This document shows positions 2,760-26,164 of a stretch of DNA of 64,000 nt, one piece after another. A program made the translations under genes and the position numbers. Below the pieces are notes generated by a model, which saw only the letters and a program-made list of their open reading frames with translations, was not told the DNA's origin and did not search any database. The stretch comes from Candidatus Melainabacteria bacterium 17Bon1m. Its GTDB lineage: Bacteria > Cyanobacteriota > Vampirovibrionia > Obscuribacterales > Obscuribacteraceae. The stretch lies in NCBI GenBank assembly GCA_032128875.1, contig JAVLKG010000003.1, positions 1,016,974 through 1,080,973 of the forward strand, given 5' to 3'. Position 1 is the first letter of the stretch, and the number at the start of each line of letters is the position of its first letter.

Positions 2760-3158
2760 ATGCCCAAAGGCAAATCAAATGAAATCAAAGAAGAAGGCGC
2801 CGAAACAAGCGCCGATGCAAATCGACCCAATAGCCAAGAAAATGTCAAACAAGGCAATGTTCGGGATGAAGCCGAAGGCGGGCAAGAAAGCCTGTCGCTA
2901 GTTGGCGCTGAAATCAAACCGCGCAAGGGGATGACGGTTTATTTCATTAGGGGTAGAGAAGTCAGCCCAGCCCTCGTTTTGAATGTCGTGAAGGATCAGG
3001 TCATTGATCTGAACTATCAGAGCATTCATACGCCAGGACGCTGTGTGACGATGCTCAAAGTTGAAAAAGGATTGAAAGCTGGTCAGTGGTGGCCTGACCT
3101 CGACGAGTCAGAGGCCGCGCTAAAACTTGAATTCTCCAAATGCTTCGCTGTCTCCTGA
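2760..3158 (+). CDS. Hypothetical phage protein
   Basis: 132 aa ORF with AGGGGA SD; acidic N-terminus plus a small beta-rich domain ending in WWP. Confidence 0.65.
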   Translation: MPKGKSNEIKEEGAETSADANRPNSQENVKQGNVRDEAEGGQESLSLVGAEIKPRKGMTVYFIRGREVSPALVLNVVKDQVIDLNYQSIHTPGRCVTMLKVEKGLKAGQWWPDLDESEAALKLEFSKCFAVS

Positions 3159-4818
3159 GCAGATTCTAGAAATGGTGGCTCAAGAAGCCGCCGTTGAAGC
3201 AATCCAATGGGAACAGAATAGACAAGATAGAGCAATCAAAGACCGGGCAGAACTAACTGTTCGCTGTGCTTATTCGCTGGAAGAGCGCGCCGCGGAGCTC
3301 GTACTTTGCCGCGAAGATATTTTTCACTGGTTAGATAACTGGTGTTGGATTGAAGAGCCGCGCGCCGATGTCCAAGAAATCCCATTCTTAAGATACGACT
3401 TCCAGACCGAATTCATTCAATGGGTGGTTGATAACGTCGCTGAAACTCTCGGCACGATCAAGAAGAAAACCCTATTGATTGAGAAATCCCGGGACATGGG
3501 GGTTAGCTGGACGTTAATCGCCGTCGCTGTCTGGTACTGGCTATTCCACAACAGATCATCTCTATTTGGATCAAGAAAAGCTGAATTAGCCGACAAATTG
3601 GGCGACATGAAAACCTTGCTGGAAAAAGCAAGATTCATCATCCGCCGACTTCCTGAATGGATGTGGCCGATCGGATTTGACCAGAAAGAAGATATGGGTC
3701 ACAACCTGATCAAGAACCCCAACGGTGGCGCGATTACCGCTGAAGCCAGTTGCGTCGACTTCGGACGGGGGGACAGAAAACTTTTCATTGTCCTGGACGA
3801 ATTTGCCAGTTGGCCGTATGACGACGCTGCAGCAAAATCAGCCGGCGGATCTTCATCTGTCCTGATTTTCGTATCAACTCCGAAAGGACCATATAACAAG
3901 TTCGCCCGGATGGCTCGAGGCGAAGACGACGTTACACCACTGATCAAAACACTGCATTGGACGCAGCACCCGATCAAAGCGGCTGGAATGTCGATGGATC
4001 ACGCAGGTAAACCGACTAGCCCTTGGTACCGCGAGCAGTGCAATTCAGGAACATTCTCAGCCGATGACATCGCTTCAGAATTCGATCTGAACTATGCGCA
4101 TTCGACCAAAGGACTTGTATTCCCGGACTATGTAGCCAATTGGCACAGAATGAAACTAATTCCGGATGAAAGATCCCCGATCATTCGGGTTTGGGATCCT
4201 GGAGTTAAGACATTCTATGTTCTCTTTTGCCAGGTCGATAAAGACCGCCGGATTCTTTGCCTTGATGAAGTCTGCATTACAGACGCCAATCTACACGATG
4301 TAGCGCAAGAAGTTTTGAGAGTCAGCAATGAACGCTTCAGGCGTTTCAATTTCCTGGACTGTGGCGACCCTGCTGGATCCAGAATCACTAACTCGCTGCA
4401 AGAATCGCCCGAGTTTGAAACGCTACGTGATGAATATGACATTGATATTGATGTGTCATTCATGGACGGAATGCGATCTGATTTGAAGGTCAAATCAAGA
4501 ATCACAGCGATTCACAACAAGCTCAGAGAGCTGAACGCCAGAACCAATACACCCGGTTTATTGATTGACCATGAGCGATGCCCCACGCTTGATAGGGCAA
4601 TGCTCGAAGGCTACCGATACAAGGTAGACAAGCACACGAAACGTGTTTCGGAAATTGTCGATGAAGAACACCCTTGGGAAGATGCGGTTGACTGTCTTGG
4701 TATGGGAATCCTATACAAACTCGGTCTTGGTACCAACAAACAAGGTAGCAAGAAAGTTGAGATTGAGAAGAATGTCATTCGTTGGCCCGGTCAAATGAGG
4801 CGCCAAAGAATTGTTTGA
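3127..4818 (+). CDS. terL: Terminase large subunit
   Basis: Walker A-like LLIEKSRDMGVSW, Walker B FIVLDEFA, coupling motif VSTP, nuclease motifs RVWDPG and EDAVDC. Confidence 0.92.
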   Translation: MNSPNASLSPEQILEMVAQEAAVEAIQWEQNRQDRAIKDRAELTVRCAYSLEERAAELVLCREDIFHWLDNWCWIEEPRADVQEIPFLRYDFQTEFIQWVVDNVAETLGTIKKKTLLIEKSRDMGVSWTLIAVAVWYWLFHNRSSLFGSRKAELADKLGDMKTLLEKARFIIRRLPEWMWPIGFDQKEDMGHNLIKNPNGGAITAEASCVDFGRGDRKLFIVLDEFASWPYDDAAAKSAGGSSSVLIFVSTPKGPYNKFARMARGEDDVTPLIKTLHWTQHPIKAAGMSMDHAGKPTSPWYREQCNSGTFSADDIASEFDLNYAHSTKGLVFPDYVANWHRMKLIPDERSPIIRVWDPGVKTFYVLFCQVDKDRRILCLDEVCITDANLHDVAQEVLRVSNERFRRFNFLDCGDPAGSRITNSLQESPEFETLRDEYDIDIDVSFMDGMRSDLKVKSRITAIHNKLRELNARTNTPGLLIDHERCPTLDRAMLEGYRYKVDKHTKRVSEIVDEEHPWEDAVDCLGMGILYKLGLGTNKQGSKKVEIEKNVIRWPGQMRRQRIV

Positions 4819-6820
4819 GAAACTTCGATTTATCCAATCCAACATTCCCCCGGTAACCTCCGATTACTGGAAGGAACCGGCACAACAGCTATACAACCAA
4901 TATAAGTACTTCGAAGAAGCCAGCCTAGATCTAAGAACAAATATTTGGCCCGCTTGCGCGCGAGCTTATTTCTGTCGCCGGCAATTGCCAGACAATGAAG
5001 GTATGGATTGGGCAAACGGATCCGATCTGGGTGAAACGGATATTTGGGATTCCGTTAACTATGCGGGCGACGCGCTATCCTTGGCGCTCTTCCCTCGCGA
5101 CCAATCTTATCTAGAACTGCTCAGCCAATACGAAGAAGATCAAGGCCTGTTGAATGACATCAGAGATCTTCTGATGATGTATCACCGGCAAGCTGACACC
5201 CGCGGTCAGTATGCGCGGCACATCAAACAGATGCTTATCTATGGAACGTCGGCTATCCGCTGGACGTGGCGCACGATTGAAGATCACAAGCAATTCCCGC
5301 CAACTGAAACTTTGCGCCGACTGTTGGAAGAAGGTGTTGAATTAGATCCGCTCGAAGACATCACCAAAACATATAAGAAGTATAAATTCCCGGTTAAGAC
5401 CTTCAACGGTCCTGTTATCCAGCCGGTCGATATGTACGACTTGTTTTTGGATCCTGCCGCTGATCTTTCCAATGAACACAAAACGGCAATCATTCAGCGT
5501 CTCTATTTGACGCCAGAAGAAATCGAACACGCCGAAGACGAGAACGGCGAGAAACGTTATTCGAATACAGACGGCATTGAACCAATGTCGCTTGAACAAA
5601 TCTATGGACAAGAATCAGAACGCCTTGAACTGGTAACTGAACTTGGATTGAATCCGATTGCCGCTGGCAATAGTTCAAAGAAGCTTGTTCCTGTTTACGT
5701 TTTTCACCAACCAGTGAGGAAATTTGACGGTGACAGCCATAAGTATGTCGACACCTATTTTTACCTGGCACTCAGCAACAGCCAAGAGCAATTCAAACTC
5801 ATTCGAGTCGAAGACAACCCCAACAGTCAGCTTGGCGGCCAGCGTACTGGAAGTAGGGGATTATATATTGACTCTTACGTGGATTGGCTTTCTGGTGCTT
5901 ATGGAATTGGCGCAGTTGAGAAATCCCTTTCCGCGTATGAACAGAAAAACGTAGTCGCGGCGCTCGGTCTGAACGCTCAATTGGCTTCCGTTTTCCCGGC
6001 ATACACCGTCATTGGTGGCGTGCTGCAGGACGATGCAAAGCTAAAAATGGCGCCCGGATCAATCAATGTGATCAACTATAAGCCGGCTATTGGAACTAAT
6101 TTCATTGCCCCTGTGCCAGCTCCAATCGGAACGGTTCAGTTAGGTATGCAGGCTGAACAATGGTATGGTCAAAAGATCGTTGGTCAATTCCAAGCCTACG
6201 GCGCTGCCGCTCAAGATCCAACCAAGTCGATCAAGACTGCAAAAACCGCAACTGAAATCAACACGCAGTCAACGACCGGATCTGTGATGAGAGATAACCT
6301 CTTGGAAAAAATCACGACCAGATCAGTTGAGCCGCTATTTCAAGACATCTATGAAGCTGCCCGCCTGTGGGTTGATGATATCAACACGTTTGAGAAATCA
6401 GCCGATGGCGATGGACGATTGGGTTCAGTTCAAAAGATGGATCTGGATCGCGACCGCCGCGTTATTTGTACCGGATTCCATGGACAAATGAATAAAGCCA
6501 AGGAAATTGAAGAACTGCAGAACGCTCTGCAAATCATCACGACCGGCAACGCGCTTGAACAGCTTCCGACCTTGCGCCCTGTCCTTCAGGATCTTGTATT
6601 CAAATTGCTGGGCCGCTTGGGCGTCAAGAATTTGGAGCAATACAAAGCTGATCCAATGCAGCTAATCATGAACGATCCAAATGTTCAGATGATGATCGAG
6701 CAAGAAATTCAGAAACGAATTGCCCAGTTGACAGGTCAGCCCGCGGTACCATCACCACAAGAAGGACCGCCACCAGGGGCGGTACCACCTGAAATGATGG
6801 GAGCCCAACAGGCAGCATGA
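4811..6820 (+). CDS. Portal (head-tail connector) protein
   Basis: 669 aa directly after terL; QMLIYGTS, DLFLDP, YGIGAVE and KTATEI motifs and a Gln/Pro-rich C-terminus typical of podovirus portals. Confidence 0.88.
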   Translation: MFEKLRFIQSNIPPVTSDYWKEPAQQLYNQYKYFEEASLDLRTNIWPACARAYFCRRQLPDNEGMDWANGSDLGETDIWDSVNYAGDALSLALFPRDQSYLELLSQYEEDQGLLNDIRDLLMMYHRQADTRGQYARHIKQMLIYGTSAIRWTWRTIEDHKQFPPTETLRRLLEEGVELDPLEDITKTYKKYKFPVKTFNGPVIQPVDMYDLFLDPAADLSNEHKTAIIQRLYLTPEEIEHAEDENGEKRYSNTDGIEPMSLEQIYGQESERLELVTELGLNPIAAGNSSKKLVPVYVFHQPVRKFDGDSHKYVDTYFYLALSNSQEQFKLIRVEDNPNSQLGGQRTGSRGLYIDSYVDWLSGAYGIGAVEKSLSAYEQKNVVAALGLNAQLASVFPAYTVIGGVLQDDAKLKMAPGSINVINYKPAIGTNFIAPVPAPIGTVQLGMQAEQWYGQKIVGQFQAYGAAAQDPTKSIKTAKTATEINTQSTTGSVMRDNLLEKITTRSVEPLFQDIYEAARLWVDDINTFEKSADGDGRLGSVQKMDLDRDRRVICTGFHGQMNKAKEIEELQNALQIITTGNALEQLPTLRPVLQDLVFKLLGRLGVKNLEQYKADPMQLIMNDPNVQMMIEQEIQKRIAQLTGQPAVPSPQEGPPPGAVPPEMMGAQQAA

Positions 6821-7113
6821 AAAATCTAAATATGTTCAAGCGCTATACACCGACTAGCGCTAAACGAATGATGACTTCGGAGCAGAAGGAACAAGTTCTT
6901 TTGGCTCGATTGGTTAACTCGCCCGAATGGGCGGCAGTGAAGCGAGCGACCGGCTTTTGCTTGAGTCGTTATGCTGCAGCGCCACCACTGAAACTCAATT
7001 TATTGATTGGCTATTTAACTTTCTCAATACTTAGGGATGGATTCAATCAGCTAATCGATCACATCGAATCTGAGGCAATGAAGGCTCCGAATCCGCATGA
7101 CTTTGACGAATAA
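6817..7113 (+). CDS. Small phage protein downstream of portal
   Basis: 98 aa, ATGA overlap with the portal; a small gene at this position is common in podovirus head modules. Confidence 0.7.
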   Translation: MKNLNMFKRYTPTSAKRMMTSEQKEQVLLARLVNSPEWAAVKRATGFCLSRYAAAPPLKLNLLIGYLTFSILRDGFNQLIDHIESEAMKAPNPHDFDE

Positions 7114-7144
7114 CGGCGACTAGGGGAAAGAGTCGTTCTCTAAG
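7112..7144 (+). promoter_or_regulatory. Structured leader motif, copy 1 (hairpin/possible pseudoknot)
   Basis: AACGGC-GACTAGGGGAAAGA-GTCGTT-CTCTAAG; similar element at 8564-8593. Confidence 0.45.
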
Positions 7145-7162
7145 CGAATAGGTAGGGAACGA

Positions 7163-7912
7163 ATGCCAGTAGAACTAATTGAACCGATGGAAGACGACAT
7201 TGAAGAAGTCGTTGACCAGGAACCGGAAAAAGAAGAAAAACAAGTTGAGCAACCTAAAGACACGCTGGCTATGGCGCGTCAAATCGGTGCAGAAATTTAC
7301 GGACAGATCAAAGCTGAATCTAACGCCCAAGGCGTGCAACAGCCTAGCAAAGTTCAGATCGCTATTAAGGAAATGCTGGATGAAGGCGTTCCTCCGCTTG
7401 CGATCAAACGAATCTTGAAATTGAGAGAAGCCGAACGCGCTGACGAGCAGGAGATTATGAATGCTCACCAGCAAAAGGCTGCTATGGATCGATTCAACGA
7501 TGAATGCTGGCAAATCGGCGCGATGGAACTTGAGAAATATTCAGCGAATATTCCAGTCCTCGCAAATGCTGGCCAGGGACTGAGATCAGATCTCTTGGCT
7601 CAGTTGAATGAAGTGATCAGCACTGATCCTGAATTCGCATCAGTCAGACATCAAATCCGATCGGGAAGACATCCGGACGCCAGGAAAGTCGCTCAGGGAG
7701 CCGCGAAAGTGGTTGACGCCTGGTTGGCTGGTAACGGCTTGTCTAAACCAAAACCGTCATTGAATCTGCAAAGCAGCAAGGTTCAGCCGGCGGAAGCAAA
7801 AGCAAATTTTGATGATTTCAGTAAGGGACAGAAGCAACTCTATCACACCGTACTGAAACACACGGGGGACGAGAAGAAGGCAATGAAGCGAGCTCTAGAG
7901 CTGGCAAGTTAA
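7163..7912 (+). CDS. Capsid scaffolding protein
   Basis: 249 aa, very acidic N-terminus, helical, located between portal and capsid. Confidence 0.7.
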   Translation: MPVELIEPMEDDIEEVVDQEPEKEEKQVEQPKDTLAMARQIGAEIYGQIKAESNAQGVQQPSKVQIAIKEMLDEGVPPLAIKRILKLREAERADEQEIMNAHQQKAAMDRFNDECWQIGAMELEKYSANIPVLANAGQGLRSDLLAQLNEVISTDPEFASVRHQIRSGRHPDARKVAQGAAKVVDAWLAGNGLSKPKPSLNLQSSKVQPAEAKANFDDFSKGQKQLYHTVLKHTGDEKKAMKRALELAS

Positions 7913-7924: not shown

Positions 7925-8557
7925 ATGCCTGGTTTTGAATATGCCAAAGGATTGTCTGGAATCTCTGATCCCCTCAGAGACATGCAGATGCAAAACGGAG
8001 TCACGATCACTCGTGGCGATGCTCTGGAGTATGTCAACGGAAAAGTAGTTGGTGTTAACGCTAAAACCGATAAAGCCCGCTATGTAGCCGAAGAAACTTA
8101 TACTTGCGGCGCGACCGAAATCAAGAAAATCAAAGTAAAAAGTACCGCTAAAGGTCTGGCCGTTTTCAAAGTCGGCTTGACTCCCACCTTGAACGGTGTT
8201 GCTTGCCAATCAAACGCAAGTACCACCACTGTCAAAGCAGCCCTGACCGGAACTGATTCCGACATGGTTGGCGGTGTTGTATATATTCCGGAACTCAACC
8301 AACAAAGATTCATTACTGCAAACACCTATTCAGGCGGTGTAGTTACGATCACTGTTGCTGAGCCGTTCACCACTGCGCCTACTGTCGGTCATACCGTCAG
8401 AGCAACTGCTTTTGGTCCTGGTCATGAAGCTGTCCAATTCTCAGGAACTGGATCAGCCAATTTGAGCAACGTCCAAGGCGAAGCGGTATCAGGAAACATC
8501 AGCATCTTTGATGTGGATCTTTCCAAGAAAACAGCTTACGTCAGTTTTAACCCGTAG
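7925..8557 (+). CDS. Capsid decoration/cement-like structural protein
   Basis: 210 aa Gly/Thr/Val-rich ORF with strong AGGAG SD, between scaffold and capsid. Confidence 0.55.
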   Translation: MPGFEYAKGLSGISDPLRDMQMQNGVTITRGDALEYVNGKVVGVNAKTDKARYVAEETYTCGATEIKKIKVKSTAKGLAVFKVGLTPTLNGVACQSNASTTTVKAALTGTDSDMVGGVVYIPELNQQRFITANTYSGGVVTITVAEPFTTAPTVGHTVRATAFGPGHEAVQFSGTGSANLSNVQGEAVSGNISIFDVDLSKKTAYVSFNP

Positions 8558-8563
8558 GGTACT

Positions 8564-8593
8564 GATGACGAACTAGGGGGAGTCGTTTCCAAG
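8564..8593 (+). promoter_or_regulatory. Structured leader motif, copy 2
   Basis: GATGAC-GAACTAGGGGGA-GTCGTT-TCCAAG upstream of the major capsid gene. Confidence 0.45.
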
Positions 8594-8615
8594 ATCACTT
8601 AAGGAGTGAGAGGAA

Positions 8616-9539
8616 ATGACCGTAAAAACTACAGATTTTCCGCCAGCTTTGAAGTCCACTCTTCATGACGTCTTCGAAGCAAGTTGGAAGAAAAGACAAG
8701 ATCAGTATTCACGGGTATTCGATGTTGAAACCAGCTTCGACGCCTATGAAGACGAGCTTCAGATCCAGGGTCCGGACGAAATTCCGGTAGCCACTGAAGG
8801 CAGCGTTTTTGAACGCGTTGAAATCGAGAATGTCCGCTCTAAGAGATACACCCACGCCATTTATAAGGGCGAGGTCAAGATCACTAGAGAGGCACTCGAT
8901 GATATCAAATACGGCAAGATCACTGACGCAGTTGCAAAATTGGCTATTGCTGGTTTTAGAACTGTTGAAAGAATTGGCGCCGCGTTCTTCTATAACGGCT
9001 TGATCGGATCGGAATTGTCGCCTGATGGCGCTGCCGTATTCGGTACGCACAACCTGTCTAACCCGCTGCCCGGTCGCCCGACGACTGACAGCAACGCAGG
9101 AACCGGAAGACTTGGTTCTACCAATATCCGCGCTGCCCGCGCTGACGGTCGCAAGACCCTTGACGAACATGGTTCTTTGGCTCCGTACTACCTGACTCAA
9201 TTGTTAGTTGGTCCGGATCTCGAAGATGAAGCCTATGTTCAAAAAGGCAGCGATCAAAAGCCTGGAACGACTAACAACGATGACAACTATACCGGTCGTC
9301 AGATCAAGGACATTGTTGTTCTCGACTTCTTGGCTGAAGCGCCGAACTACTCCGATTCCATGTGGTTCCTTCGTGATCCTGACATGGCAAGGAATAAATT
9401 CTTCTGGCGCGTCAAACCAGAACGCAAGCTGATCCAAGAGGAAGCTTCTGGAGACTGGCTCTATCGCCTGTACTTCCGCTGCTCCGCTGGATGCTCGGAC
9501 TGGCGCGGTTTGTGGGCTTCTACTGGTACCACTGCTTAA
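8616..9539 (+). CDS. Major capsid protein (Mu gpT-like family, HK97 fold)
   Basis: 307 aa; F.VETS..AYE, ITREALDD, SPDGAAVF...H, LLVGPDLE, WFL and C-terminal GCSDWRGLWAS motifs; strong SD. Confidence 0.88.
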   Translation: MTVKTTDFPPALKSTLHDVFEASWKKRQDQYSRVFDVETSFDAYEDELQIQGPDEIPVATEGSVFERVEIENVRSKRYTHAIYKGEVKITREALDDIKYGKITDAVAKLAIAGFRTVERIGAAFFYNGLIGSELSPDGAAVFGTHNLSNPLPGRPTTDSNAGTGRLGSTNIRAARADGRKTLDEHGSLAPYYLTQLLVGPDLEDEAYVQKGSDQKPGTTNNDDNYTGRQIKDIVVLDFLAEAPNYSDSMWFLRDPDMARNKFFWRVKPERKLIQEEASGDWLYRLYFRCSAGCSDWRGLWASTGTTA

Positions 9540-9557
9540 TCATAGGAGTGAGTAACA

Positions 9558-10055
9558 ATGCCTGCTGAACAATCAAATATGGACAACCTGTCACTGTCAG
9601 GAACTCTGGCAGTGGCGGGTGTCGCCACCTTCTCCACCCCGCTTGCTAAATCGAATATCAACGCTTCAGTAAGACGGCAGAGAATGACAATTCCGCTGGC
9701 TCCGATCACCGGTGCCGCCGCGGATAGTACCAACTATTCAGGCTGGTTTTTCCCTGGTGTTGCTTGTACCGTAACCGGTATTTCGCTCATCACTGACACG
9801 CCGCCTACTGTTGGAACGGACGTATTCACAGCCAAGAAGGCTAGCGCCGCTGGTAATACCATGCTTAGCGCTGCCTCTTATAACTGCAACTCTCTTGTGG
9901 CAAACACCGGAACGCCAATGGCTTTAACCACCACGGCTTCCGATCTTCAATTGACCGCTACACAAGGCGCGCACTTGAGATATGCCGCGGGTGTTCAAAC
10001 TGTTGATTTGATCAACTTGTTTGCAACTGTTGAATACGAAGTAACTGATTCGTAA
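9558..10055 (+). CDS. Structural (head fibre/decoration-like) protein
   Basis: 165 aa Ala/Thr-rich ORF after the capsid gene, AGGAG SD. Confidence 0.55.
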   Translation: MPAEQSNMDNLSLSGTLAVAGVATFSTPLAKSNINASVRRQRMTIPLAPITGAAADSTNYSGWFFPGVACTVTGISLITDTPPTVGTDVFTAKKASAAGNTMLSAASYNCNSLVANTGTPMALTTTASDLQLTATQGAHLRYAAGVQTVDLINLFATVEYEVTDS

Positions 10056-10065
10056 GGATTAGTCT

Positions 10066-10809
10066 GTGGCAAACTCCACATACATGGATACTGTGAATAG
10101 GATCTTGAACCAAGCCGGTCAGGATCCTATTCCTGATTCTTCAACTTTCACAAATGGTCCTCTAACTAAGGTTCAGCTTCAGACAAAATTGTTTGTCGAT
10201 AAAGCAAATCGCGGCTTAGTGCGATCGATCCGCGGCCGCTTTATGAAGCGGAAATATACATTCAATACAAGCGCTGCATCGAATTCCTATAGCGTCGACA
10301 CAACGACCAGCTTGGAAAATATGGTTGAGGATTCGATGTTTAGGACATCCGCCGGCAAGGGCGGAAGAATTGAATATATCCCTTATGACACTTGGATCAC
10401 CTGGTTCCCCGAAGGTGAATCAGTCAAAGGGATTCCAAATTTCTGGTTTGATTATCCTCCTGATGGAAGTGGCGTCGACAAGATTGGATTCAGCCCGCCG
10501 CCTAATGCGACGATTGCGATCCAGTATGAAGGCTATTTAGATCCGGTCGTTCTGTCTGCATACAACGACGTTATTCAGTGGCCGCAAAAATTTGAAGACT
10601 TGCTTTGGGACTACGCTCAACTTTGGGTCGAGATGGTTCTTTCTGAAGGAAAGATGGAGCAGATCGCCGTCTTCCTCGAGCCGCTTTTTACTCAAGTTCG
10701 ACAACTAACACTTGGACCCGTCGATAAGCCGCCTTCGGTGGATCTCGGAATGAGATTAGGCGGGGTTCGCAAAGGGGGTTCTAGAAGTGCTTACAGCCCG
10801 ACTCTCTAA
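10066..10809 (+). CDS. Head-tail adaptor protein (T7 gp11/P22 gp4-like position)
   Basis: 247 aa; N-terminal YMDTVNRIL..AG, KGIPNFW and IGFSPPP motifs; synteny. Confidence 0.7.
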   Translation: MANSTYMDTVNRILNQAGQDPIPDSSTFTNGPLTKVQLQTKLFVDKANRGLVRSIRGRFMKRKYTFNTSAASNSYSVDTTTSLENMVEDSMFRTSAGKGGRIEYIPYDTWITWFPEGESVKGIPNFWFDYPPDGSGVDKIGFSPPPNATIAIQYEGYLDPVVLSAYNDVIQWPQKFEDLLWDYAQLWVEMVLSEGKMEQIAVFLEPLFTQVRQLTLGPVDKPPSVDLGMRLGGVRKGGSRSAYSPTL

Positions 10810-12505
10810 GGGTCTTGTTGCTTTAGTTCAAACTTGCCTGTTGGCGATCATGCCAATGGCTGCCGACGCACAAACAGCGCCGCAACAGGCGCCGCCGCCC
10901 GCATCAATGACAGAACTGTCACAGCAAGGGCGAAGCTTGAAGCCTGATGTAATGGCGCCGGATAAAGGTCTGCTTACCAATTCAGCCGATATTCTCAGGG
11001 AAGCTAGTTCAGCCAGAGTACTTCACAATCTGCAGATGCTAAAGCGCGGCATTTGGTCTTCTCGCGGAACTGGGTTCACCAAAGAACGCGCAATTCCTTT
11101 CAATATGGGCACTTCCTTTATTGAAATCGGCAATCACGGCGGAACAATCCCCGTTTTTCAAGTCGGCACAAGTCTATTTACCTACGATTTAACAACTCAT
11201 GCAGAGACACTGCTTGGAACCGTAGGCAATACCAACGTCGCTTGTATGCGATCGTTCGGTCCTCAACTATTTATTGTTGCGCAAGATTCCGGCAAGCCTC
11301 AGAAGTGGGATGGCATTGTTGGGCGCGCCCTATCAAATTTAGGCGGCTGGAACCCGTCAATTGGTGGCGTCACATATATCAATCCGCCATTTGTCGAAGT
11401 CTTCAACAACAGAGCGGTTTTTGCTGGAATGCCAACAAATCCGCAAGTTCTAGTTTTGTCCGATTATGGCGCGCCCGGTAGCTACACGACGTCAGTCCCG
11501 GCAGTTGCCACTGACGCCGGCGCTATTGTCATTCCCACATCACTGGGATTGATCACAGGACTGCGCACGGTCCGATTAAGCAATGAAGCCAATTCAATGG
11601 CGCTGATCATTGGCTGTACCAACGGCATGGCAATGTTGACCGGATCTAGCCCTGATGACTTCACGCTTCGCGAATTAACCAGATCGTTCGGAGTAGTGAA
11701 CAACAGGACATGGATTCAATTAGGTAATGATATTTACTTTCTAGCGACTGATGGAATCCGGAAGTTCTCCAACGTTTATTTCTCGTCTTCAATGACGAGC
11801 GTTCCTGAAAGTTACTCGATTCAGGATGTTTTCAACAGAAGGAATAAGGCGGCAGCGGCCGCGCCTTTTGCTGTCCACCATCCGGATACACAGGAAGTTC
11901 ATTGGTTCTTTCCTCGAGATAATTCAACAACAAATAATTCTTGCGTGATTCTGAATTACAGCACGCGGAATCCAAGCAATCCCAATGAATCATCTCCTGA
12001 CGTTGTTTTCAGCACGAAGGACACGACAGCGACATGCGGCTTTGAACTCAATGGGACCATGTACCACGGGAATTCATCCGGCTATCTATTCGTTGACTAT
12101 TCGGGCGATACATATGATGGGACTGTAATAACGTGGGAATATCTCAGCCCCTTCATACCAAGCAACAGCCCAGCACAAAGCGCTTCAGCTAGACGATTCA
12201 TCATCCTGACAGAAGGCGGAGATCAAAAGTTCACTTGTAGCGCTTACGTTGTCGAAACATTGAGCAATGGTCAATCTCGATTCAAACTCATGTCGACTAT
12301 GCCGATCAATCAGGTTGCTGAATCAATCACAAAACTTGGTACATGGCCGTCTGGCTCAACCACGACATATCCAAAACTTATCAATTTCGAATCAAAAGGA
12401 TCGGGAAGATTCTGGGCCCTGCGCATGACTGGTACCGGCAGTGGTGAACATATTGATTTGGTCGGAATCCAGTCAATACTCGTAGTAGGGGGATGGAGGC
12501 AGTAA
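10787..12505 (+). CDS. Tail nozzle/stabilisation-like beta-propeller protein with N-terminal signal peptide
   Basis: 572 aa beta-rich; VFNNRAVFAG, GNDIYFLATDGIRKF and EVHWFFP resemble P22 gp10/T7 gp12-type proteins; follows the adaptor; GTG start with AAGGGGG SD. Confidence 0.7.
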   Translation: MLTARLSKGLVALVQTCLLAIMPMAADAQTAPQQAPPPASMTELSQQGRSLKPDVMAPDKGLLTNSADILREASSARVLHNLQMLKRGIWSSRGTGFTKERAIPFNMGTSFIEIGNHGGTIPVFQVGTSLFTYDLTTHAETLLGTVGNTNVACMRSFGPQLFIVAQDSGKPQKWDGIVGRALSNLGGWNPSIGGVTYINPPFVEVFNNRAVFAGMPTNPQVLVLSDYGAPGSYTTSVPAVATDAGAIVIPTSLGLITGLRTVRLSNEANSMALIIGCTNGMAMLTGSSPDDFTLRELTRSFGVVNNRTWIQLGNDIYFLATDGIRKFSNVYFSSSMTSVPESYSIQDVFNRRNKAAAAAPFAVHHPDTQEVHWFFPRDNSTTNNSCVILNYSTRNPSNPNESSPDVVFSTKDTTATCGFELNGTMYHGNSSGYLFVDYSGDTYDGTVITWEYLSPFIPSNSPAQSASARRFIILTEGGDQKFTCSAYVVETLSNGQSRFKLMSTMPINQVAESITKLGTWPSGSTTTYPKLINFESKGSGRFWALRMTGTGSGEHIDLVGIQSILVVGGWRQ

Positions 12506-12885
12506 TGGCACAACAACCACAACCAGTATATACAGCCGCGCCAACGCCGACCAGGCAGATTGGAACCGGCGCATTGCCAACGGCAGCGCCAACCAACGGC
12601 AGTATCAATCAAGCTCTTCTGACAGCTCATGGCAAAGTCGGGGAATCAAGCTTGGTCACTGTCGAAGTTTCGGCGGCGGCCACAATTACATTCTGGGTCT
12701 ATTCGCCTGCCAGCCAACGTTGGATCAATCCGGGCTACACAGGAACAAAATACACGCTTGTTTTTGCTGCCGGCGATCTAAGTGATTTCTTCCAGGCAGA
12801 ACCAGGAACGCTCTTCTATCTGCAGTCTTCGGCTGGTTCAGTCAACGCTTACACCAACGCACCAAAAGCCAAACCGGATCCATAA
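12505..12885 (+). CDS. Small structural protein
   Basis: TAATG coupling to the upstream gene, GGAGG SD, beta-rich 126 aa. Confidence 0.6.
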   Translation: MAQQPQPVYTAAPTPTRQIGTGALPTAAPTNGSINQALLTAHGKVGESSLVTVEVSAAATITFWVYSPASQRWINPGYTGTKYTLVFAAGDLSDFFQAEPGTLFYLQSSAGSVNAYTNAPKAKPDP

Positions 12886-15146
12886 TGAATAGAAATTTCA
12901 AGGCGCTATTTCTCGCTTTAGCGGTTGGTCTGTTCTGTCAAACGGCAAAAGCAGATCAGCCGGTTTATGGCGTCAATGGCGGTAGCACCGGCGTTCCCTC
13001 AAACGCTCCATTCCTATTAACCACTTCCAGCGCGGCGCTTAGCGACGAGCGGGTTCTAAGATCTCAATTCGGAAACATCACCTTAACTGATGGCGGCCCA
13101 AATGGATTTTTCGATATTGGCTGGACCGGGCAATTAGGTCTAACCAATGGTGGTACCGGCGGTAATGGCGCGCAGGCTGGAACCAATAGTTTGCTAGATG
13201 GAATCGCAGGAGCGGCGGCAGCCAATGGCGATACGCTTGCCCGCGTCTCTGGTAACTGGACGAGAATCGCCAAAGGAACAGACGGTTTTGTCTGGACGAT
13301 GGTTTCTGGCAGCCCTGGCTGGGCAGCTTCGGCAAGCGGAGCGCCGGCGGGGTCTTCTTACGTCACGATTTCCCTTGACGGTTCTTTGACGTCAGAACGT
13401 GTTTTAACCGGCACATCAAACCGAGTGACCATCACGGACGGCGGAGCCGGCGGAAACGTCACCTTAGATGTTGGATCAGATGTCGTTCTTCTGACTGCAA
13501 GTCAAACCCTGACCAATAAGACCTTAACCAGTCCTTCAATTGGGACTAGCTTGATCTTTGAATTAGGCGCGAACGATACAACGATCCAAGCAACGGCGCC
13601 GGCAGCGGCAAGACTCTACACAATCCCTGATGCTGGTGGCGCGGCTTCCTTTGTCATGACCGAAGGCGCTCAAACTATCAATGGCGTAAAAACCATGGGT
13701 AGTGCGACTCGATTCAATGCCAATATTCAAAATAGTTCAGGCAACACAATCACCCTGCCTTCATCGGCGGCAACACTTGCAACGCTTGCGCTGTCGGAAT
13801 CACTGACCAACAAGACATTGCCTAGTGCGATTCTTCAGACTCAATTAACGCTTGATCAAACGACTGGCGATTACACAATCACATGGTCAAACCCTGGCGC
13901 GACTCGCGCTTATAACGTTTATGACGCTGGCGGATCTGCTGATTTCGCGATGAAATCCGGAACGCCAACCAACCAGGCGATTGCTTATGGCGATGGAAAC
14001 AAGATCGTATTTTTAGCACCTGGATCGAATGGTCAAGTCGTCAAAATGAGCGGATCGACGCTCTCTTGGGGATCTGACAATTCAAGCGGATTTGGCGGAA
14101 GCGGTTCGGGCGGAGCGACGACCAAAGGCGCCGTTACCGAAACAACCCCGGTATCTCTTGAATGCACAACATTTACGCAAACGGTTTCAACCACCTGGGC
14201 GCCTCTTAGCGGGACTGTTGTTAATTGCACATCAACAGCTGATTTCAACGGAACCACCAATATTAGCGGACAAGGCTACTATGGCGGAGCCGCAACAACA
14301 AATGGCAGAAACGGCAGCGGTCCATGTGGTGGATATCGCGGCGCCGGCAATGGTGGTGGCGGTGGTGGCGGTAACGCTGGAACCGGCGGAGACGGTGGCG
14401 CAGTAGCCGACAGCGGCGGCAACAACAAACCCTTCACGCTAGAGCCTGGAAGCGGTGGCGGCGGCGGTAACGCAACAGCCGGCGGCAATGGTGGCGGACT
14501 TCTGAAAGTCTGCGCGATCGGAGCAATTACGATCGGAGCCAGCGGAACTATTGATGCATCCGGGCAAGCGGGAACGGCCAACACAGGAGCAGGCGGTAAA
14601 GCTGGCGGCGGTGGCGCGGGCGGTACTGTTCTTTTGGCTAGTCAAACTTCCATCACGCAAACAGGAACCGCTTCAGTAGCCGGCGGAAACGGCGGAAACG
14701 GCGGAGCCTCAAGCGCTGGGCAAGGTGGCGGTGGCGGCGGCGGTGGCTATTATGTCCGAATCTCTCCCTCCAATACTGGCGCGGGAAGTATCACGACAAC
14801 TGCAGGAACCGGAGGGACCGGCAACAACGCGGCTGGAACTGCTGGAACCAGTGGAACGGCAATGGCGATTACAGGAACCCCAAATCATCCATTGATCGGA
14901 AGCTTGGAAAAACATCTTCCTATCCTGGCCGCTTTTGCTCGAATTCATGCTCCAAATCCGCATGATTTGAAATTGTCAGAGAAACAGACGATTGGAACGC
15001 TGGCAGCGCTGGACGCCAAATCAACTCAAGAATATGAAAATCTCTGCCATCTCTATCAATTTGGTGAAGATTTCAGCGGCAATAAAGTCGTGAAGCTTGA
15101 TCAGAAACAATCTGAAAAATTAGAGGCTCTGAGAAATGCCAGCTAA
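12885..15146 (+). CDS. Tail fibre/adhesin with glycine-rich domain and N-terminal signal peptide
   Basis: 753 aa; internal fibre repeats (ERVL..DGG x2, LTNKTL x2, DAGG..F.M x2), long poly-Gly region, helical C-terminus. Confidence 0.8.
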   Translation: MNRNFKALFLALAVGLFCQTAKADQPVYGVNGGSTGVPSNAPFLLTTSSAALSDERVLRSQFGNITLTDGGPNGFFDIGWTGQLGLTNGGTGGNGAQAGTNSLLDGIAGAAAANGDTLARVSGNWTRIAKGTDGFVWTMVSGSPGWAASASGAPAGSSYVTISLDGSLTSERVLTGTSNRVTITDGGAGGNVTLDVGSDVVLLTASQTLTNKTLTSPSIGTSLIFELGANDTTIQATAPAAARLYTIPDAGGAASFVMTEGAQTINGVKTMGSATRFNANIQNSSGNTITLPSSAATLATLALSESLTNKTLPSAILQTQLTLDQTTGDYTITWSNPGATRAYNVYDAGGSADFAMKSGTPTNQAIAYGDGNKIVFLAPGSNGQVVKMSGSTLSWGSDNSSGFGGSGSGGATTKGAVTETTPVSLECTTFTQTVSTTWAPLSGTVVNCTSTADFNGTTNISGQGYYGGAATTNGRNGSGPCGGYRGAGNGGGGGGGNAGTGGDGGAVADSGGNNKPFTLEPGSGGGGGNATAGGNGGGLLKVCAIGAITIGASGTIDASGQAGTANTGAGGKAGGGGAGGTVLLASQTSITQTGTASVAGGNGGNGGASSAGQGGGGGGGGYYVRISPSNTGAGSITTTAGTGGTGNNAAGTAGTSGTAMAITGTPNHPLIGSLEKHLPILAAFARIHAPNPHDLKLSEKQTIGTLAALDAKSTQEYENLCHLYQFGEDFSGNKVVKLDQKQSEKLEALRNAS

Positions 15147-15360
15147 TACATTCCTGATCTTTGAAAAGGATGAATCAGGTCATTATCCAAATCGTTCATC
15201 AAATATCTGGCAAGGACCAACGCCAATCGCTGGGCAAGACATGCCCGCCGAAGCGATCGCTGTGGTCTGGCTTGTAATTGAAGGCGATGTTAATCCGCTC
15301 AATTATTACCGGAACAATCAAAACAGCTTATTGCACCTTCCGGAAGCTCCACCTAATTGA
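15136..15360 (+). CDS. Small protein after fibre (possible assembly chaperone)
   Basis: 74 aa, 11-nt overlap with the fibre gene. Confidence 0.55.
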   Translation: MPANTFLIFEKDESGHYPNRSSNIWQGPTPIAGQDMPAEAIAVVWLVIEGDVNPLNYYRNNQNSLLHLPEAPPN

Positions 15361-15410
15361 TTGGCTCACCCCTTGAGATGACACTAAATGTAGTGGCACT
15401 CATTTGGGGT
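15354..15410 (+). promoter_or_regulatory. Candidate late promoter motif copy 2, plus hairpin covering the endolysin SD
   Basis: TAATTGATTGGCTCA; nested pairs ACCCC/GGGGT, TGAG/CTCA, CACTA/TAGTG. Confidence 0.45.
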
Positions 15411-15414
15411 AGCG

Positions 15415-15888
15415 ATGGCTATATCTAATCAAGGCCTCAATTTCATCAAGAATTGGGAAGGCTGCAAACTCAAAACCTATATTTGCGCCGCCGGCAAACC
15501 GACCATTGGGATCGGTCACGTTCTATTGCCTGGCGAAGATAAGAAATTCAAAGACGGGATCACGGAAGAATTCGCTGAACAGATGTTTCTTTCTGACGTG
15601 AAACCACGTGAAGCGTCGATCAGATCGGTGGTCAGGGTTCCTTTGAATCAGCGGCAGTATGACGCAATTGTCAGTTTCGTTTTTAACATCGGCGTCCAAG
15701 CATTCAAGACCTCGACTTTCTTGAAGCGATTGAACGAAAGGCGATTTATCGAAGCATCGAATGAATTGCTCCGCTGGTGTAAGGACGACAACGGCAAGGT
15801 CATCAAAGGCGTCCTAAATCGGCGCGAAGCAGAGCGCAAATTATTCCTTTCAAAACAAACCGACAAAGTGGAGTTTTATCATGTTTAA
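15415..15888 (+). CDS. Endolysin, GH24 phage lysozyme
   Basis: E15-x8-C24-x5-T30 triad, TIGIGH, YDAIVSFVFNIG, GVLNRREAERKLF. Confidence 0.95.
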   Translation: MAISNQGLNFIKNWEGCKLKTYICAAGKPTIGIGHVLLPGEDKKFKDGITEEFAEQMFLSDVKPREASIRSVVRVPLNQRQYDAIVSFVFNIGVQAFKTSTFLKRLNERRFIEASNELLRWCKDDNGKVIKGVLNRREAERKLFLSKQTDKVEFYHV

Positions 15889-16210
15889 GATTTTCAAAAA
15901 GGCTGGCGAAGTAGCAGACAAAGTTAAAACCGGTATCAGCGTATTACAACGCTTTCTGAAGGCGTTTGAGGCGATCAAATCTGATATCGACGGTGATGGT
16001 AAGCCGGAGTATCAAAACATCGCTGAGAGCGTCGATGAGCTGAAGAAGCTCGCCACTGAACGAATGCTGAAGCACAAAGATCTTTTGATCGAAGACGGCA
16101 AAGCCGGCGCTGTGATCTTGAAAGATATCCTTCATCGAATGGAAGCTTTGGCTAAAGAAGTTCAGGAATCCGCTTTGGCTAAAGCCGCTGATCAGGAGCC
16201 GGTCGCATGA
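15881..16210 (+). CDS. Hypothetical helical protein in lysis cassette
   Basis: 109 aa, GGAG SD, contains DIDGDGKPE. Confidence 0.65.
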   Translation: MFKIFKKAGEVADKVKTGISVLQRFLKAFEAIKSDIDGDGKPEYQNIAESVDELKKLATERMLKHKDLLIEDGKAGAVILKDILHRMEALAKEVQESALAKAADQEPVA

Positions 16211-16335
16211 TTGTTCTAGAAGCCAATCTAATGTGGTTTTTATCTGGTTCGTTGGTCTTGTTGCTCAGCGGATGTCTTGGTTATCTCTTAACGGTGAGCA
16301 CACATGACCCCCAGTCTACCCCTTTCAAATTCTGA
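16207..16335 (+). CDS. 42-aa membrane peptide (not in ORF track), possible lipoprotein/lysis accessory
   Basis: MIVLEANLMWFLSGSLVLLLSGCLGYLLTVSTHDPQSTPFKF; ATGA overlap and AGGAG SD. Confidence 0.55.
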   Translation: MIVLEANLMWFLSGSLVLLLSGCLGYLLTVSTHDPQSTPFKF

Positions 16336-16600
16336 AGACGATTTGGATCAATGCGAATTGATTGCTGAGGCGCAAGCCAAGGCAATTGTGATCATGGCTG
16401 AAGGCAAAGCCAAAGGGCTTACCTATATGTGCTTGTCTGTTCCAATCCTGATCGGATTAATGCTCTGTCTGCAAACTTTTGCGGCAGCTAATCATGTCAC
16501 TTTGGATATTGATAAACAGATTCCATTGATGCTGGTTGGCGTCGTGCCGGCGGTCCTGGTCGTTTCCTTCAAAGGGAAGAACGGGAACGGCAAATCATGA
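16304..16600 (+). CDS. Holin-like two-TM protein
   Basis: 98 aa, two hydrophobic helices, basic C-terminus, in the lysis cassette. Confidence 0.55.
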   Translation: MTPSLPLSNSEDDLDQCELIAEAQAKAIVIMAEGKAKGLTYMCLSVPILIGLMLCLQTFAAANHVTLDIDKQIPLMLVGVVPAVLVVSFKGKNGNGKS

Positions 16601-16821
16601 GCCTTGGTCATTCTTGGATCAATAACGATTACTGCCGATACTGCAAGACCTGGCAGAATTGGGATGACAGGGACGCAGGCTATAACATGAAAGAGCCGTG
16701 CCCTAAGAATCCGAGCTCAATCAGTTTAAGCCGCAACGGATACGGACCTGAACTTGCTCTTCGGGACAATGATCGTCTTGAACGGCTGGACATTCCAACA
16801 ATGCCAGGCGCAAGTAACTGA
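16597..16821 (+). CDS. Small Cys/His-containing hypothetical protein
   Basis: ATGA overlap; H..CxxC..C pattern; 3' end overlaps the convergent methyltransferase. Confidence 0.4.
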   Translation: MSLGHSWINNDYCRYCKTWQNWDDRDAGYNMKEPCPKNPSSISLSRNGYGPELALRDNDRLERLDIPTMPGASN

Positions 16822-17277
16822 ATCGGTCTTACCATCACCGGTGAAACTGATTCTAGGCAAAACGATCAATCCATCGGGCGGATGACTCGCAAGCCAATCG
16901 CCGCGTTCTTCTGTTGGCTCCATAAAGGACATGCGAAGCAGAAGCGCCAATGGCGTGTTGTGTGAATACAAATTTTTCAGAATTGGGAAGGCGACCAGGA
17001 ATGGTGGATTGGTTCCAATTGCCAGATTGCCTGGAGCCACATAGCTTGGCGAGCAATCATCAAATTTAGCGGATCGAGCGTCAGCATAGAAATTACATGG
17101 CATATCTGGATCGATATCCGAAGTAATTACTTTATGCTCTCGCTCAAAAACTCGGGCGATATCGCCTTGTCCGGCGCATGGCTCCCAAATTATTTTGTCT
17201 GAAAACTCAGGAACATGCTCCAGCAAGAACTCTGTTGCTCGTCTCGGTGTTGGGTAAAAGTCGTTCCTTCTTCTCAT
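16726..17277 (-). CDS. Orphan DNA amino-methyltransferase (probably N6-adenine)
   Basis: DFYPTP, WEPCAGQG (SAM binding), TNPPF (motif IV). Confidence 0.88.
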   Translation of the reverse strand: MRRRNDFYPTPRRATEFLLEHVPEFSDKIIWEPCAGQGDIARVFEREHKVITSDIDPDMPCNFYADARSAKFDDCSPSYVAPGNLAIGTNPPFLVAFPILKNLYSHNTPLALLLRMSFMEPTEERGDWLASHPPDGLIVLPRISFTGDGKTDSVTCAWHCWNVQPFKTIIVPKSKFRSVSVAA

Positions 17278-18043
17278 TTGCCAATTCCTTTTCGACTAAT
17301 TGTCCTAGCTTGATCGGATTATTTTCTTCAGTTGATTCATAAACTTTATGGGCGTGGCTGCCAGGTCTGGCATATCTCCAGACGCCTTTCTTGTCCTGCC
17401 AAAATCGGCGCTGTCTGCGCTTGAATCCATAATGTGTATTTCTGCCATTACCTCGGAAGCTAGATTCAAGCTCTTTTCTCAATTGAGGACTGATTGAATC
17501 AAGCAAATTTTTACGGGCGCCTTCAAGCATCTTGCCGCCAGTTACTTGATATCCGTAACCAATGATCCAGCACACTTCCTGCCTGGTGCAACCCATCATC
17601 AGAAGCATGATCATTGCATTCTGTTTCGGAGTGAGATCTTTCAATTCCTTGAAGAAATGCCGCGCTATTTGACGCCGGTAAACTAATTCTTCAGCTTCTT
17701 CTCTGTCTCGGTTATTCCAGCACAAAGGTTCCGGAAACCACTGATAATCATGCGGGCAATTACTATCTTGAACTGAGCCAGTGACAGAATCGACGTACTT
17801 GTATTGATTGAAATATTTTGCATATACTTGATGCCGTCTCGATATGTCGATCGCGCGGAAGGTAGTGATTTTATAGATTAGAGCGCGAATATTGTCTTCA
17901 GATTTACCTGTGAAATCTATCTGAAGAATCGCTTCCAATGCGTCTTGAATCGCATCTTCTCGATCTTCTTTTGATCTTAGCCAACGCGTCGCGTTCACGC
18001 AGATCGGCAAGACTGCGCGAAGCGGAAATGGTGTTTCCGGCAT
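17207..18043 (-). CDS. Phage-encoded sigma-70/ECF-like RNA polymerase sigma factor
   Basis: Region 2-like EDREDAIQDAL...IYKITTFRAIDISRR; region 4-like LKDLTPKQ...GCTRQEVCWIIG. Confidence 0.75.
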   Translation of the reverse strand: MPETPFPLRAVLPICVNATRWLRSKEDREDAIQDALEAILQIDFTGKSEDNIRALIYKITTFRAIDISRRHQVYAKYFNQYKYVDSVTGSVQDSNCPHDYQWFPEPLCWNNRDREEAEELVYRRQIARHFFKELKDLTPKQNAMIMLLMMGCTRQEVCWIIGYGYQVTGGKMLEGARKNLLDSISPQLRKELESSFRGNGRNTHYGFKRRQRRFWQDKKGVWRYARPGSHAHKVYESTEENNPIKLGQLVEKELANEKKERLLPNTETSNRVLAGACS

Positions 18044-18066
18044 TCCTCTATTTATCCTTGATTGAT

Positions 18067-18294
18067 TTAGTTGCCAGCTAATTTTCGATACTCAGAACTT
18101 CGTTGATACTCGATTTCAACAACAGCCGGCGCTTTGCCGTCACAATTTTTATGCAGCTTTCCAAACGATTTTAGAAATGGAAGAACCATATCCAAAGGCA
18201 TGGAAGGAATGTCTTGGCGCTGATTGCATCTCGTGCATTGCATCATTTTGAAATCAGTTACGACGTGTTGGGGCAAATTTTTCGAAGCGGTCAT
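18067..18294 (-). CDS. Small Zn-finger-like hypothetical protein
   Basis: CxxC...HxxC; start placed at MTASK after a GGAG SD. Confidence 0.6.
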   Translation of the reverse strand: MTASKNLPQHVVTDFKMMQCTRCNQRQDIPSMPLDMVLPFLKSFGKLHKNCDGKAPAVVEIEYQRSSEYRKLAGN

Positions 18295-18296
18295 GA

Positions 18297-18728: not shown

Positions 18729-18766
18729 GTCAATTCCTCACGTCCGATAAGAGTCTTTATGTTTCA

Positions 18767-18910
18767 CTAGAGCGGTATTGCCGCAATGCAATCGGGGCAC
18801 AGAAGAGGTTCGTCAAGCCCTTGCGGTGCGACCATATCCTCAAGCTCGCACCATTCGCCGCAATCACACTTGCAAGGCATTTCCATATGGTCCGGATCTT
18901 TACAGCTCAT
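18767..18910 (-). CDS. 47-aa Cys-rich Zn-finger-like protein (not in ORF track)
   Basis: MSCKDPDHMEMPCKCDCGEWCELEDMVAPQGLDEPLLCPDCIAAIPL; GAAGGA SD; fills a gap in the operon. Confidence 0.55.
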   Translation of the reverse strand: MSCKDPDHMEMPCKCDCGEWCELEDMVAPQGLDEPLLCPDCIAAIPL

Positions 18911-18919
18911 CGCTTCCTT

Positions 18920-19171: not shown

Positions 19172-19182
19172 TGTCTTTCCTC

Positions 19183-19449: not shown

Positions 19450-19471
19450 GCTTCACCTCCGATAACGTAGA

Positions 19472-22822: not shown

Positions 22823-22829
22823 TTCCTAC

Positions 22830-24161: not shown

Positions 24162-24188
24162 TCCACCACCACTTAACTAGATTTGTTC

Positions 24189-26162: not shown

Positions 26163-26164
26163 AG

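Follow-up and report, generated by a model that had tools for sequence, protein, structure and literature searches.

The first 26.5 kb of the 64,000-nucleotide stretch of DNA analysed here (the window; Candidatus Melainabacteria bacterium 17Bon1m, contig JAVLKG010000003.1, positions 1,016,974 to 1,080,973 of the forward strand) form the right-hand side of a prophage that is complete, 44.2 kb long and inserted in tRNA-Ala. Its late operon contains, directly after a head-to-tail adaptor gene of the SU10 type, a gene for a podovirus-type tail nozzle (hub), a small open reading frame (ORF) and a gene for a tail fibre-like protein, and the predicted products of the nozzle and fibre genes both begin with a putative Sec-type signal peptide. 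These two genes lie at 10787-12505 (572 aa, GTG start) and 12885-15146 (753 aa, ATG start), both on the plus strand. The initial annotation of the window had given their leaders as MLTARLSKGLVALVQTCLLAIMPMAADA followed by Q for the nozzle and MNRNFKALFLALAVGLFCQTAKA followed by D for the fibre; our coordinates, start codons and translations agree with it. The features concerned are the following.

10787..12505, plus strand: tail nozzle (hub), 572 aa, GTG start, identified from an AlphaFold 2 (AF2) model and Foldseek
10787..10870, plus strand: nozzle leader, residues 1-28, with n-region MLTARLSK, h-region GLVALVQTCLLAIM and c-region PMAADA, predicted cut between A28 and Q29
10772..10778, plus strand: Shine-Dalgarno-like (SD-like) AAGGGGG, 8 nt before the nozzle GTG, by direct reading
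12885..15146, plus strand: tail fibre-like protein, 753 aa, with a fibre-repeat N-terminal half, a Gly-rich beta-helix at about residues 405-711 and a helical C-terminus
12885..12953, plus strand: fibre leader, residues 1-23, reading MNRNFK, then ALFLALAVGLFCQ, then TAKA, predicted cut between A23 and D24

Both leaders combine a basic n-region, a hydrophobic h-region and a polar c-region with small residues at -3 and -1 (ADA/Q in the nozzle and AKA/D in the fibre, the slash marking the predicted cut). A lipobox is absent, the +1 residue being Q in the nozzle and D in the fibre, with no Cys at +1 among the 40 nozzle leaders compared below, and so is a twin-arginine translocation (Tat) motif, there being no RR in either leader. 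The host encodes signal peptidase I (134.5 bits), its commonest predicted cut types are AxA/Q and AxA/D, and the leader of a host TolC-like protein ends LPVLA/QTTAPSGNP, in the same style as the phage leaders; with the peptidase present and host leaders so alike, the host should be able to process leaders of this kind.

The start sites proposed in the initial annotation hold up. An AAGGGGG run does precede the nozzle GTG, at 10772-10778; the ATG of the downstream MTELS sequence (~10907), which had been named as the next plausible start, has no SD-like run upstream; and the fibre start is coupled, its ATG overlapping the TAA of the preceding 130-aa ORF as TAATG. Overlooked at that stage were two in-frame ATGs within the nozzle leader (M22 and M24), the first of which is where the database starts its 551-aa gene call for the same protein. 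The GTG is favoured over M22 by the SD, by the homologues and by the codon pattern, on which grounds the predicted starts are the real ones. Relative to the locus most closely related at the DNA level (L005), 18 of the 29 leader codons differ, 10 of them synonymously and 8 through replacements that keep hydrophobic or small residues, and this pattern includes codons upstream of M22 and outside the overlap with the adaptor gene. Leader starts also abut or overlap the adaptor stop in three related loci (L001, L002, L004), with SD-like runs before several of the starts. The Met of MTEL is not a conserved column, appearing only in some rows of the homologue alignment, and no internal start is conserved.

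Under a strict leader rule, a heuristic of our own that asks for a basic n-region, a hydrophobic 9-residue window and small residues at -3 and -1, two of the 18 late ORFs were positive, namely the nozzle and the fibre. The portal, capsid, adaptor and endolysin are without leaders by this rule, as had been claimed, and the large terminase (TerL) and the 130-aa ORF are likewise negative. A laxer rule flagged 11 of the 70 prophage ORFs, among which inspection by eye found the classical layout in just two, the nozzle and the fibre.

Homologues of the nozzle keep the leader. All 24 full-length homologues found by a word-indexed search (37-63% identity) carry one, differing in sequence and alike in layout. 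An exhaustive profile search yielded 1422 nozzle relatives at E <= 0.001, and a tree was built from 105 rows, made up of the window protein, these homologues and, from the listed representatives P0108-P0195, those of 480 aa or more; fragments below that length and the weaker matches P0196-P0250 were omitted, and most leader columns, lying below the 50% fill cut-off, were dropped. Leader-bearing nozzles form a single clade of 41 rows (40 with a leader, and P0128 without) with a Shimodaira-Hasegawa-like approximate likelihood ratio test (SH-aLRT) support of 100, and the leader trait requires 3 changes on the tree against a mean of ~32 after shuffling. One further sequence, P0151, is positive by rule outside the clade, with a leader that is unconvincing by eye. 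In the 40 leaders the -1 residue is A in 36, G in 3 and S in 1; the -3 residue is A in 25, V in 10 and another small or aliphatic residue in 5; and the +1 residue is Q in 36, S in 2, A in 1 and D in 1. The leaders are 23 residues long at the median (the gene call of one of the 40, P0026, begins inside the h-region), and the uncharged stretch of h- plus c-region has a median of 19 residues, which is, as predicted from sequence, too short for a stable membrane anchor.

The leaderless sister nozzles (P0128, P0124 and P0130 among them) belong to the same family, accounting for 32 leaderless rows in a 73-row clade, and share the motif ..SEL..G.SLK.. that follows the leader. They differ in where they start: a few residues before this common motif, at the point where the leader-bearing proteins would begin once cut as predicted (e.g. 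P0128, MPDTPPAGMSEISQQGVSLKPDV). Searches with P0128 and with P0124 alone gave no relative among viral contigs. From the tree, the predicted nozzle leader arose once and was then retained, and judged by the alignments the putative leaders on both proteins are conserved features, not chance.

Seven distinct phages have both a leader-bearing nozzle and DNA to go with it: the window, L001 (identical to L006 and L017), L002, L004, L005 (L008/L009), L007 and L003 (L018). The fibre also has a leader in 6 of the 7; L003 ends after the nozzle. In that locus (L003 11746-16448, as in L018) the next large ORF, of 529 aa, lies on the opposite strand and the fibre and lysis genes are gone, so that this copy is a remnant. 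L008/L009 is a circularly assembled viral contig of 44,993 bp with a leader-bearing fibre and the same nozzle (its leader read in the sister L005), so that such phages occur as phage-sized, circularly assembled genomes.

A nozzle relative is present in 53 of the 401 genomes of the host's class, and 30 loci from these were examined, related genomes not being independent samples. Within the host's own family, at least one tail protein carries a leader in 5 of 6 loci: two genomes (G000 and G187) have leaders on nozzle and fibre, one (G151) on the nozzle, one (G250, L020) on neither, and the remaining two (G288 and G148) on a 271-274-aa protein and the fibre, with a leaderless nozzle. None of the 24 loci from other families in the class (small-genome lineages) has a leader on the nozzle, and the downstream fibre is leaderless in all 20 loci in which it could be read (L022, L031, L034 and L042 being unreadable). 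In the sampled genomes, tail-protein leaders thus occur only in prophages of the host's own family (metagenome-assembled genomes, MAGs, of Obscuribacterales type).

Cultured distant relatives, namely HMO-2011 and the module in the MaAM05 record, are leaderless as well. A further distant relative (L010) has a 916-aa nozzle (8468-11218) without a leader; a 458-aa protein encoded between its capsid and adaptor genes (5974-7350) bears one (MEGAMGFSRLIKSVLAVGAMVGLALPAGA followed by Q). The record of Microcystis phage MaAM05 (L013, GenBank MW495066.1, 204421-217566) holds a podovirus-like module of portal, capsid, adaptor, leaderless nozzle and fibre genes beside the bacterial housekeeping genes lepA, proS and kimA. 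This stretch of the 'jumbo phage' record looks like bacterial chromosome with a prophage. There is reportedly a published dispute over a related record. At another locus (L034, G017:C1:1062082-1066416) the nozzle is followed by a 106-aa ORF and then by a lepA-like ORF.

The identification of the 572-aa protein as a nozzle, on which the initial annotation depended, is borne out by a fold that matches podovirus nozzle and hub chains, by its position directly after the SU10-type adaptor and by its being the sole copy in the genome (7.55 Mb). An AF2 model built from 25 sequences (predicted local distance difference test, pLDDT, 80.0; predicted template modelling score, pTM, 0.77) has a helix at residues 2-21, a low-confidence, mostly disordered Pro/Gln-rich linker at residues 23-54 and then a beta-rich (beta-propeller) body. 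Its best Foldseek match in the PDB is the Pa223 chain 9nwi_Y (E 1.1e-23), with template modelling (TM) scores of 0.65-0.74 on the target for the top matches; other nozzle or hub matches include VP1 (8zkk_O), P22 gp10 (8u10_1, E 3.9e-15), T7 (9jyz_P), SU10 (7z4f_G) and Sf6 (7sg7_S), and the top 30 rows are all podovirus tail, nozzle or portal-tail entries. Its fold and gene position place the protein in the podovirus nozzle family, and the predicted leader sets it apart. The 'amidase' label on the best PHROG family of the nozzle was set aside; it is also attached to the HMO-2011 homologue and looks like an annotation habit, not a function.

The fibre is identified differently. The window protein has no Pfam match even at E 1 and no PHROG match, its AF2 monomer model is poor (pLDDT 65.7), and the model has no Foldseek match in the PDB at E <= 0.001; the label 'fibre' rests on its position, its relatives and its being the sole such gene. 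A short BppL_N motif (PF18338) is found in the fibre homologues P0037, P0051 and P0053, at E 1.2e-05 to 6.6e-11. Residues 405-711 model as a right-handed beta-helix that aligns (VIA-align) with 8vba_A (EtpA) at Z 11.4, with 2odl_A (HMW1) at Z 11.0 and with the CBA120 tailspike TSP3 at Z 6.3. We infer that it docks on the tail through its N-terminal domain from the position of the gene and from its being the only fibre-like one. Among 78 protein matches to the fibre, 47 are leader-like by rule. The close, full-coverage homologues examined (P0031-P0041, P0043-P0045, P0047-P0055 and others) all start with a leader, in differing sequences, and distant matches that share only the fibre repeats are mostly leaderless. 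Leader-bearing matches have a median of ~5 Cys and leaderless ones ~2; these are different subfamilies, and the figure was given no weight.

The prophage and its late genes supply the context in which the leaders have to be read. The remaining features are these.

17.7 kb upstream of the window start (G000:C3:999293): attL, a copy of the 42-bp attachment (att) repeat
3127..4818, plus strand: large terminase (phrog_5989, phrog_2), leader rule negative
4811..6820, plus strand: portal (PF23899 SU10_portal, E 2.2e-08; phrog_332), leader rule negative
8616..9539, plus strand: major capsid protein (PF25209, E 2.8e-13), leader rule negative
10066..10809, plus strand: head-to-tail adaptor, SU10 type (PF24175 SU10_adaptor, E 2.7e-10; phrog_10775), leader rule negative
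12493..12885, plus strand: 130-aa protein, leaderless, between nozzle and fibre
15136..15360, plus strand: 74-aa ORF, leaderless, a short form of a 172-173-aa leader-bearing post-fibre protein
15415..15888, plus strand: endolysin (phage lysozyme; PF00959, E 2.4e-39; phrog_7), with neither leader nor N-terminal membrane segment
16304..16600, plus strand: holin candidate, 98 aa, with two hydrophobic segments read from the sequence
26494-26535: attR, the 42-bp direct repeat at the 3' end of tRNA-Ala (26494-26566, minus strand)

A tyrosine integrase gene adjoins attL (L016:970-1812), with a second tyrosine-recombinase gene also at the left end (L016:2495-3163); host genes lie beyond attR, and replication genes (DnaB, ERF) are on the strand opposite to the late operon. 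At 44.2 kb the prophage has the size of the related viral contigs (~45 kb). Related loci sit in MAGs titled Candidatus Obscuribacterales, and the host is a non-photosynthetic relative of cyanobacteria. The late operon runs on the plus strand in the order ~1385-aa ORF, small ORF, large terminase, portal, three small or medium ORFs, capsid, 165-aa ORF, adaptor, 572-aa nozzle, 130-aa ORF, 753-aa fibre, 74-aa ORF, lysozyme and 98-aa ORF, the 3' end of the adaptor gene overlapping the nozzle start by 23 nt. Searches of Pfam and PHROG gave no family match for the 98-aa holin candidate.

The ORF listed as 898 aa at the start of the window truly begins 1455 nt upstream (L016:17019 to window position 2702), giving ~1385 aa. 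PHROG matches it weakly to 'internal virion protein with endolysin domain' (phrog_342, E 7.9e-07), and with the preceding 373-aa and 574-aa ORFs it may make up a set of ejection proteins. In sequencing run X1 the prophage contig is as deep as the host flanks (~100), with no sign of induction in that run. In runs X2-X4, filed as RNA-Seq and judged from contigs over window positions 8000-27900, the prophage stands at about the depth of the host flanks; it forms one contig of 44,192 nt in X3 and X4, as in the DNA run X1, and a 23,353-nt contig in X2. The sequence from X2-X4 looks like DNA carry-over and is uninformative on transcription, starts and induction. Pieces of the fibre gene that flank its Gly-rich part (14447-14464 and 14727-14746) also occur in a separate 1102-nt contig in X2-X4, deeper than the prophage, which indicates related Gly-rich sequence elsewhere in that sample.

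Two small proteins accompany the fibre. The 130-aa protein lies between nozzle and fibre in all 6 distinct leader-type phages whose fibre region is present; it has no Pfam, PHROG or PDB sequence match, and a complex prediction of adaptor, mature nozzle and 130-aa protein scored 0.00, which is evidence neither way. Directly after the fibre, L002, L004 and L007 encode a leader-bearing protein of 172-173 aa. The 74-aa ORF of the window matches the one in L004 (14404-14922) by blastp; the ORFs at the same position in L002 (14322-14843) and L007 (14189-14710) have a leader and, by eye, a YLIF/YLIY motif, with no blastp match. The window and L005 have a leaderless form of 74-75 aa that starts at the conserved ..(F/Y)LI(F/Y).. 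motif. This small gene sits where a fibre assembly factor would, an assignment that is a guess.

We consider it moderately probable that the leaders of this phage's only nozzle and only fibre are true Sec-type (signal peptidase I) signal peptides maintained by selection, and that the two proteins are exported and the virion assembled in two compartments. The arrangement suggests that the outer tail may mature outside the cytoplasm, in which the DNA-filled head is built. Nozzle and fibre would be threaded unfolded through SecYEG, cut by signal peptidase I between A28 and Q29 and between A23 and D24, respectively, and would then take up their fold and form oligomers in the periplasm. The leaderless parts (heads, internal proteins, portal and adaptor) would assemble in the cytoplasm, where the heads would be filled with DNA and capped by portal and adaptor. 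Only once the holin has breached the inner membrane, or at lysis, would head and tail parts come together, and the last assembly steps would take place in the merged compartment or the lysate. Lysis should depend on the holin, since the endolysin has no leader; holin-endolysin lysis of this type opens large lesions in the inner membrane. A more specific version, which we put slightly below an even chance, has nozzle and fibre stockpiled in the periplasm, mostly with an N-terminal Gln, the opening of the holin as the step that would join tails to heads, and the timing of lysis as what would be the final assembly checkpoint.

The initial annotation had offered three uses for the leaders, namely maturation of the tail in the periplasm or at lysis, tethering of tail assembly to the membrane, and a function at the lysogen surface. 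The third does not stand up well and is the least likely, because the genes lie in the late operon with coupled starts and the phage has no other nozzle or fibre; between maturation in the periplasm and a membrane tether the present material does not discriminate. The observation itself is confirmed and strengthened, and the interpretation is plausible.

Several points weigh against assembly in two compartments. Export and cleavage are steps that we infer from the leaders. The leader rule is crude, flagging 772 of the 4173 host ORFs of at least 250 aa (18.5%), so a lone match is not rare, and because the rule flags so many host ORFs the case rests on conservation and not on the rule. In studied podoviruses the nozzle helps to hold DNA in the head, and heads awaiting a periplasmic nozzle would need another seal, for which no candidate was seen; this is the weakest link. 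The 130-aa protein between nozzle and fibre is leaderless and the post-fibre protein has lost its leader in this phage (the 74-aa form), so a rule that every distal part is exported fails. Cysteine is not enriched in the leader-bearing nozzles (median 5, against 8 in the leaderless sisters), and a disulfide rationale for nozzle export is unsupported. Finally, in two loci of the host's own family (L019 in G288 and L023 in G148) the nozzle is leaderless and leaders stand instead on a 271-274-aa protein and on the fibre. Read on the reverse complement, the order there is nozzle, 271-274-aa protein, a leaderless ORF (154 aa in L019, 141 aa in L023) and fibre. From these two loci fibre leaders are the more widespread, and with L020 added, a nozzle leader is not obligatory in this host group.

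Some of the same points would be accommodated if the leaders served to target the inner membrane, with virions built from a pool that stays on the cytoplasmic side, returns, or is only transiently tethered, and with the exported pool doing another job, such as receptor masking, superinfection exclusion or aiding release. We regard this dual fate as unlikely, though deserving of some weight. It sidesteps the sealing problem of nozzle-less heads, it sits well with a leaderless 130-aa protein and 74-aa ORF among leader-bearing genes, and sister prophages from that host family do without a nozzle leader. The basic N-terminus, however, should by the positive-inside rule put the bulk of the protein outside; the 19-residue median of the h- plus c-region, the conserved small residues at -3 and -1 and the Gln at +1 in 36 of 40 leaders fit cleavage better than anchoring; and a leaderless isoform would need an internal start, of which none is conserved.

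Another possibility, an improbable one in our judgement, is that the virion retains the leader as a membrane-active peptide, which would insert into the host envelope at infection, as the hydrophobic loops of some tail knobs do. Pore-forming tail elements are known in other podoviruses, and the predicted helix at residues 2-21, carried on a flexible linker of 30 residues, would suit such a role. Against this, the fibre leader lies at the tail-docking end of its protein, not at the cell-facing end, the conserved AxA/Q pattern is unneeded for membrane insertion, and the leaders are too short to span a bilayer. It is very improbable that nozzle and fibre are not virion parts at all and are instead exported host-surface or moron proteins that resemble them. 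The fibre does lack a Pfam or PHROG match of its own, and its distal half does resemble secreted beta-helix adhesins (Z 11.4 for EtpA, 11.0 for HMW1), but the prophage has no other nozzle and no other fibre-like gene among its 18 late ORFs, the two genes lie between the adaptor and the lysis genes with coupled starts, the same gene order recurs in related phage contigs of ~45 kb, and the nozzle fold match is strong. That the nozzle leader is an artefact of the start site, translation beginning at M22, M24 or M41, is hardly credible, for while the database call does start at M22 (551 aa), an SD precedes the GTG and none precedes M41, an in-frame signal-peptide-like leader is present in 40 of 41 clade members despite sequence turnover, the codon differences, rich in synonymous changes, continue upstream of M22 and past the stretch shared with the adaptor gene, and M41 itself is not a conserved position.

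The textbook view is that tailed phages are put together in the cytoplasm. Decoration of the particle at a late stage could account for a leader confined to the fibre. An export signal conserved on the nozzle poses a greater problem, since the nozzle forms a central section of the channel for the DNA. Should export prove real, the sealing of filled heads, the work of the holin step besides lysis, and the folding of tail parts in a periplasmic environment with its own chaperones would all need fresh thought in this lineage. There are consequences for annotation too, in that this leader was cut off by gene callers, and filtering on signal peptides would throw out genuine virion proteins. Within the family, leader-bearing clades stand beside leaderless sister clades, and one host family beside the others, for natural comparison.

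The initial annotation knew of no characterised podovirus that exports these proteins, and our search of article full texts agrees, having turned up no such description and no paper on a tailed phage that exports its nozzle or fibre. Virion proteins are exported in the Ff phages, whose pIII and pVIII use host machinery and lose their leaders before joining the particle; Ff phages, however, assemble by extrusion through the envelope, whereas the phage described here is a tailed one with an HK97-type capsid, a terminase and a portal, a class that as a rule assembles in the cytoplasm. Sec-exported and signal-arrest-release (SAR) endolysins are examples of late phage proteins that go through host Sec before lysis. 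Those are lysis enzymes and not structural parts, and the endolysin of this phage is itself without a leader. The beta-helix of the fibre is similar to those of two-partner-secretion adhesins (EtpA, HMW1, FHA and HxuA, Z 9.3-11.4); the resemblance is one of fold only, with no sequence-family match, and the N-terminal half of the fibre has phage-fibre repeats. The MAT fibres of Bdellovibrio bacteriovorus, trimeric and phage-tail-fibre-like, are made with a signal peptide (PMC10769870) and show that production of tail-fibre-like fibres by export is feasible; unlike the proteins described here, they are cellular proteins of the predator and not virion parts, and they come with no nozzle. The nozzle itself has the same beta-propeller-based fold (TM up to 0.74) and the same position after the adaptor as the tail chains of P22 (gp10), Sf6 (gp8), T7 (gp12), SU10, Pa223 and VP1. 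Its leaderless relatives include HMO-2011 gp44, the homologue in the MaAM05 record and 25 loci (24 from other families, and L020 from the host's own). To the known nozzles it adds, ahead of the fold, a predicted Sec-type leader of 28 residues and a Pro/Gln linker of ~30.

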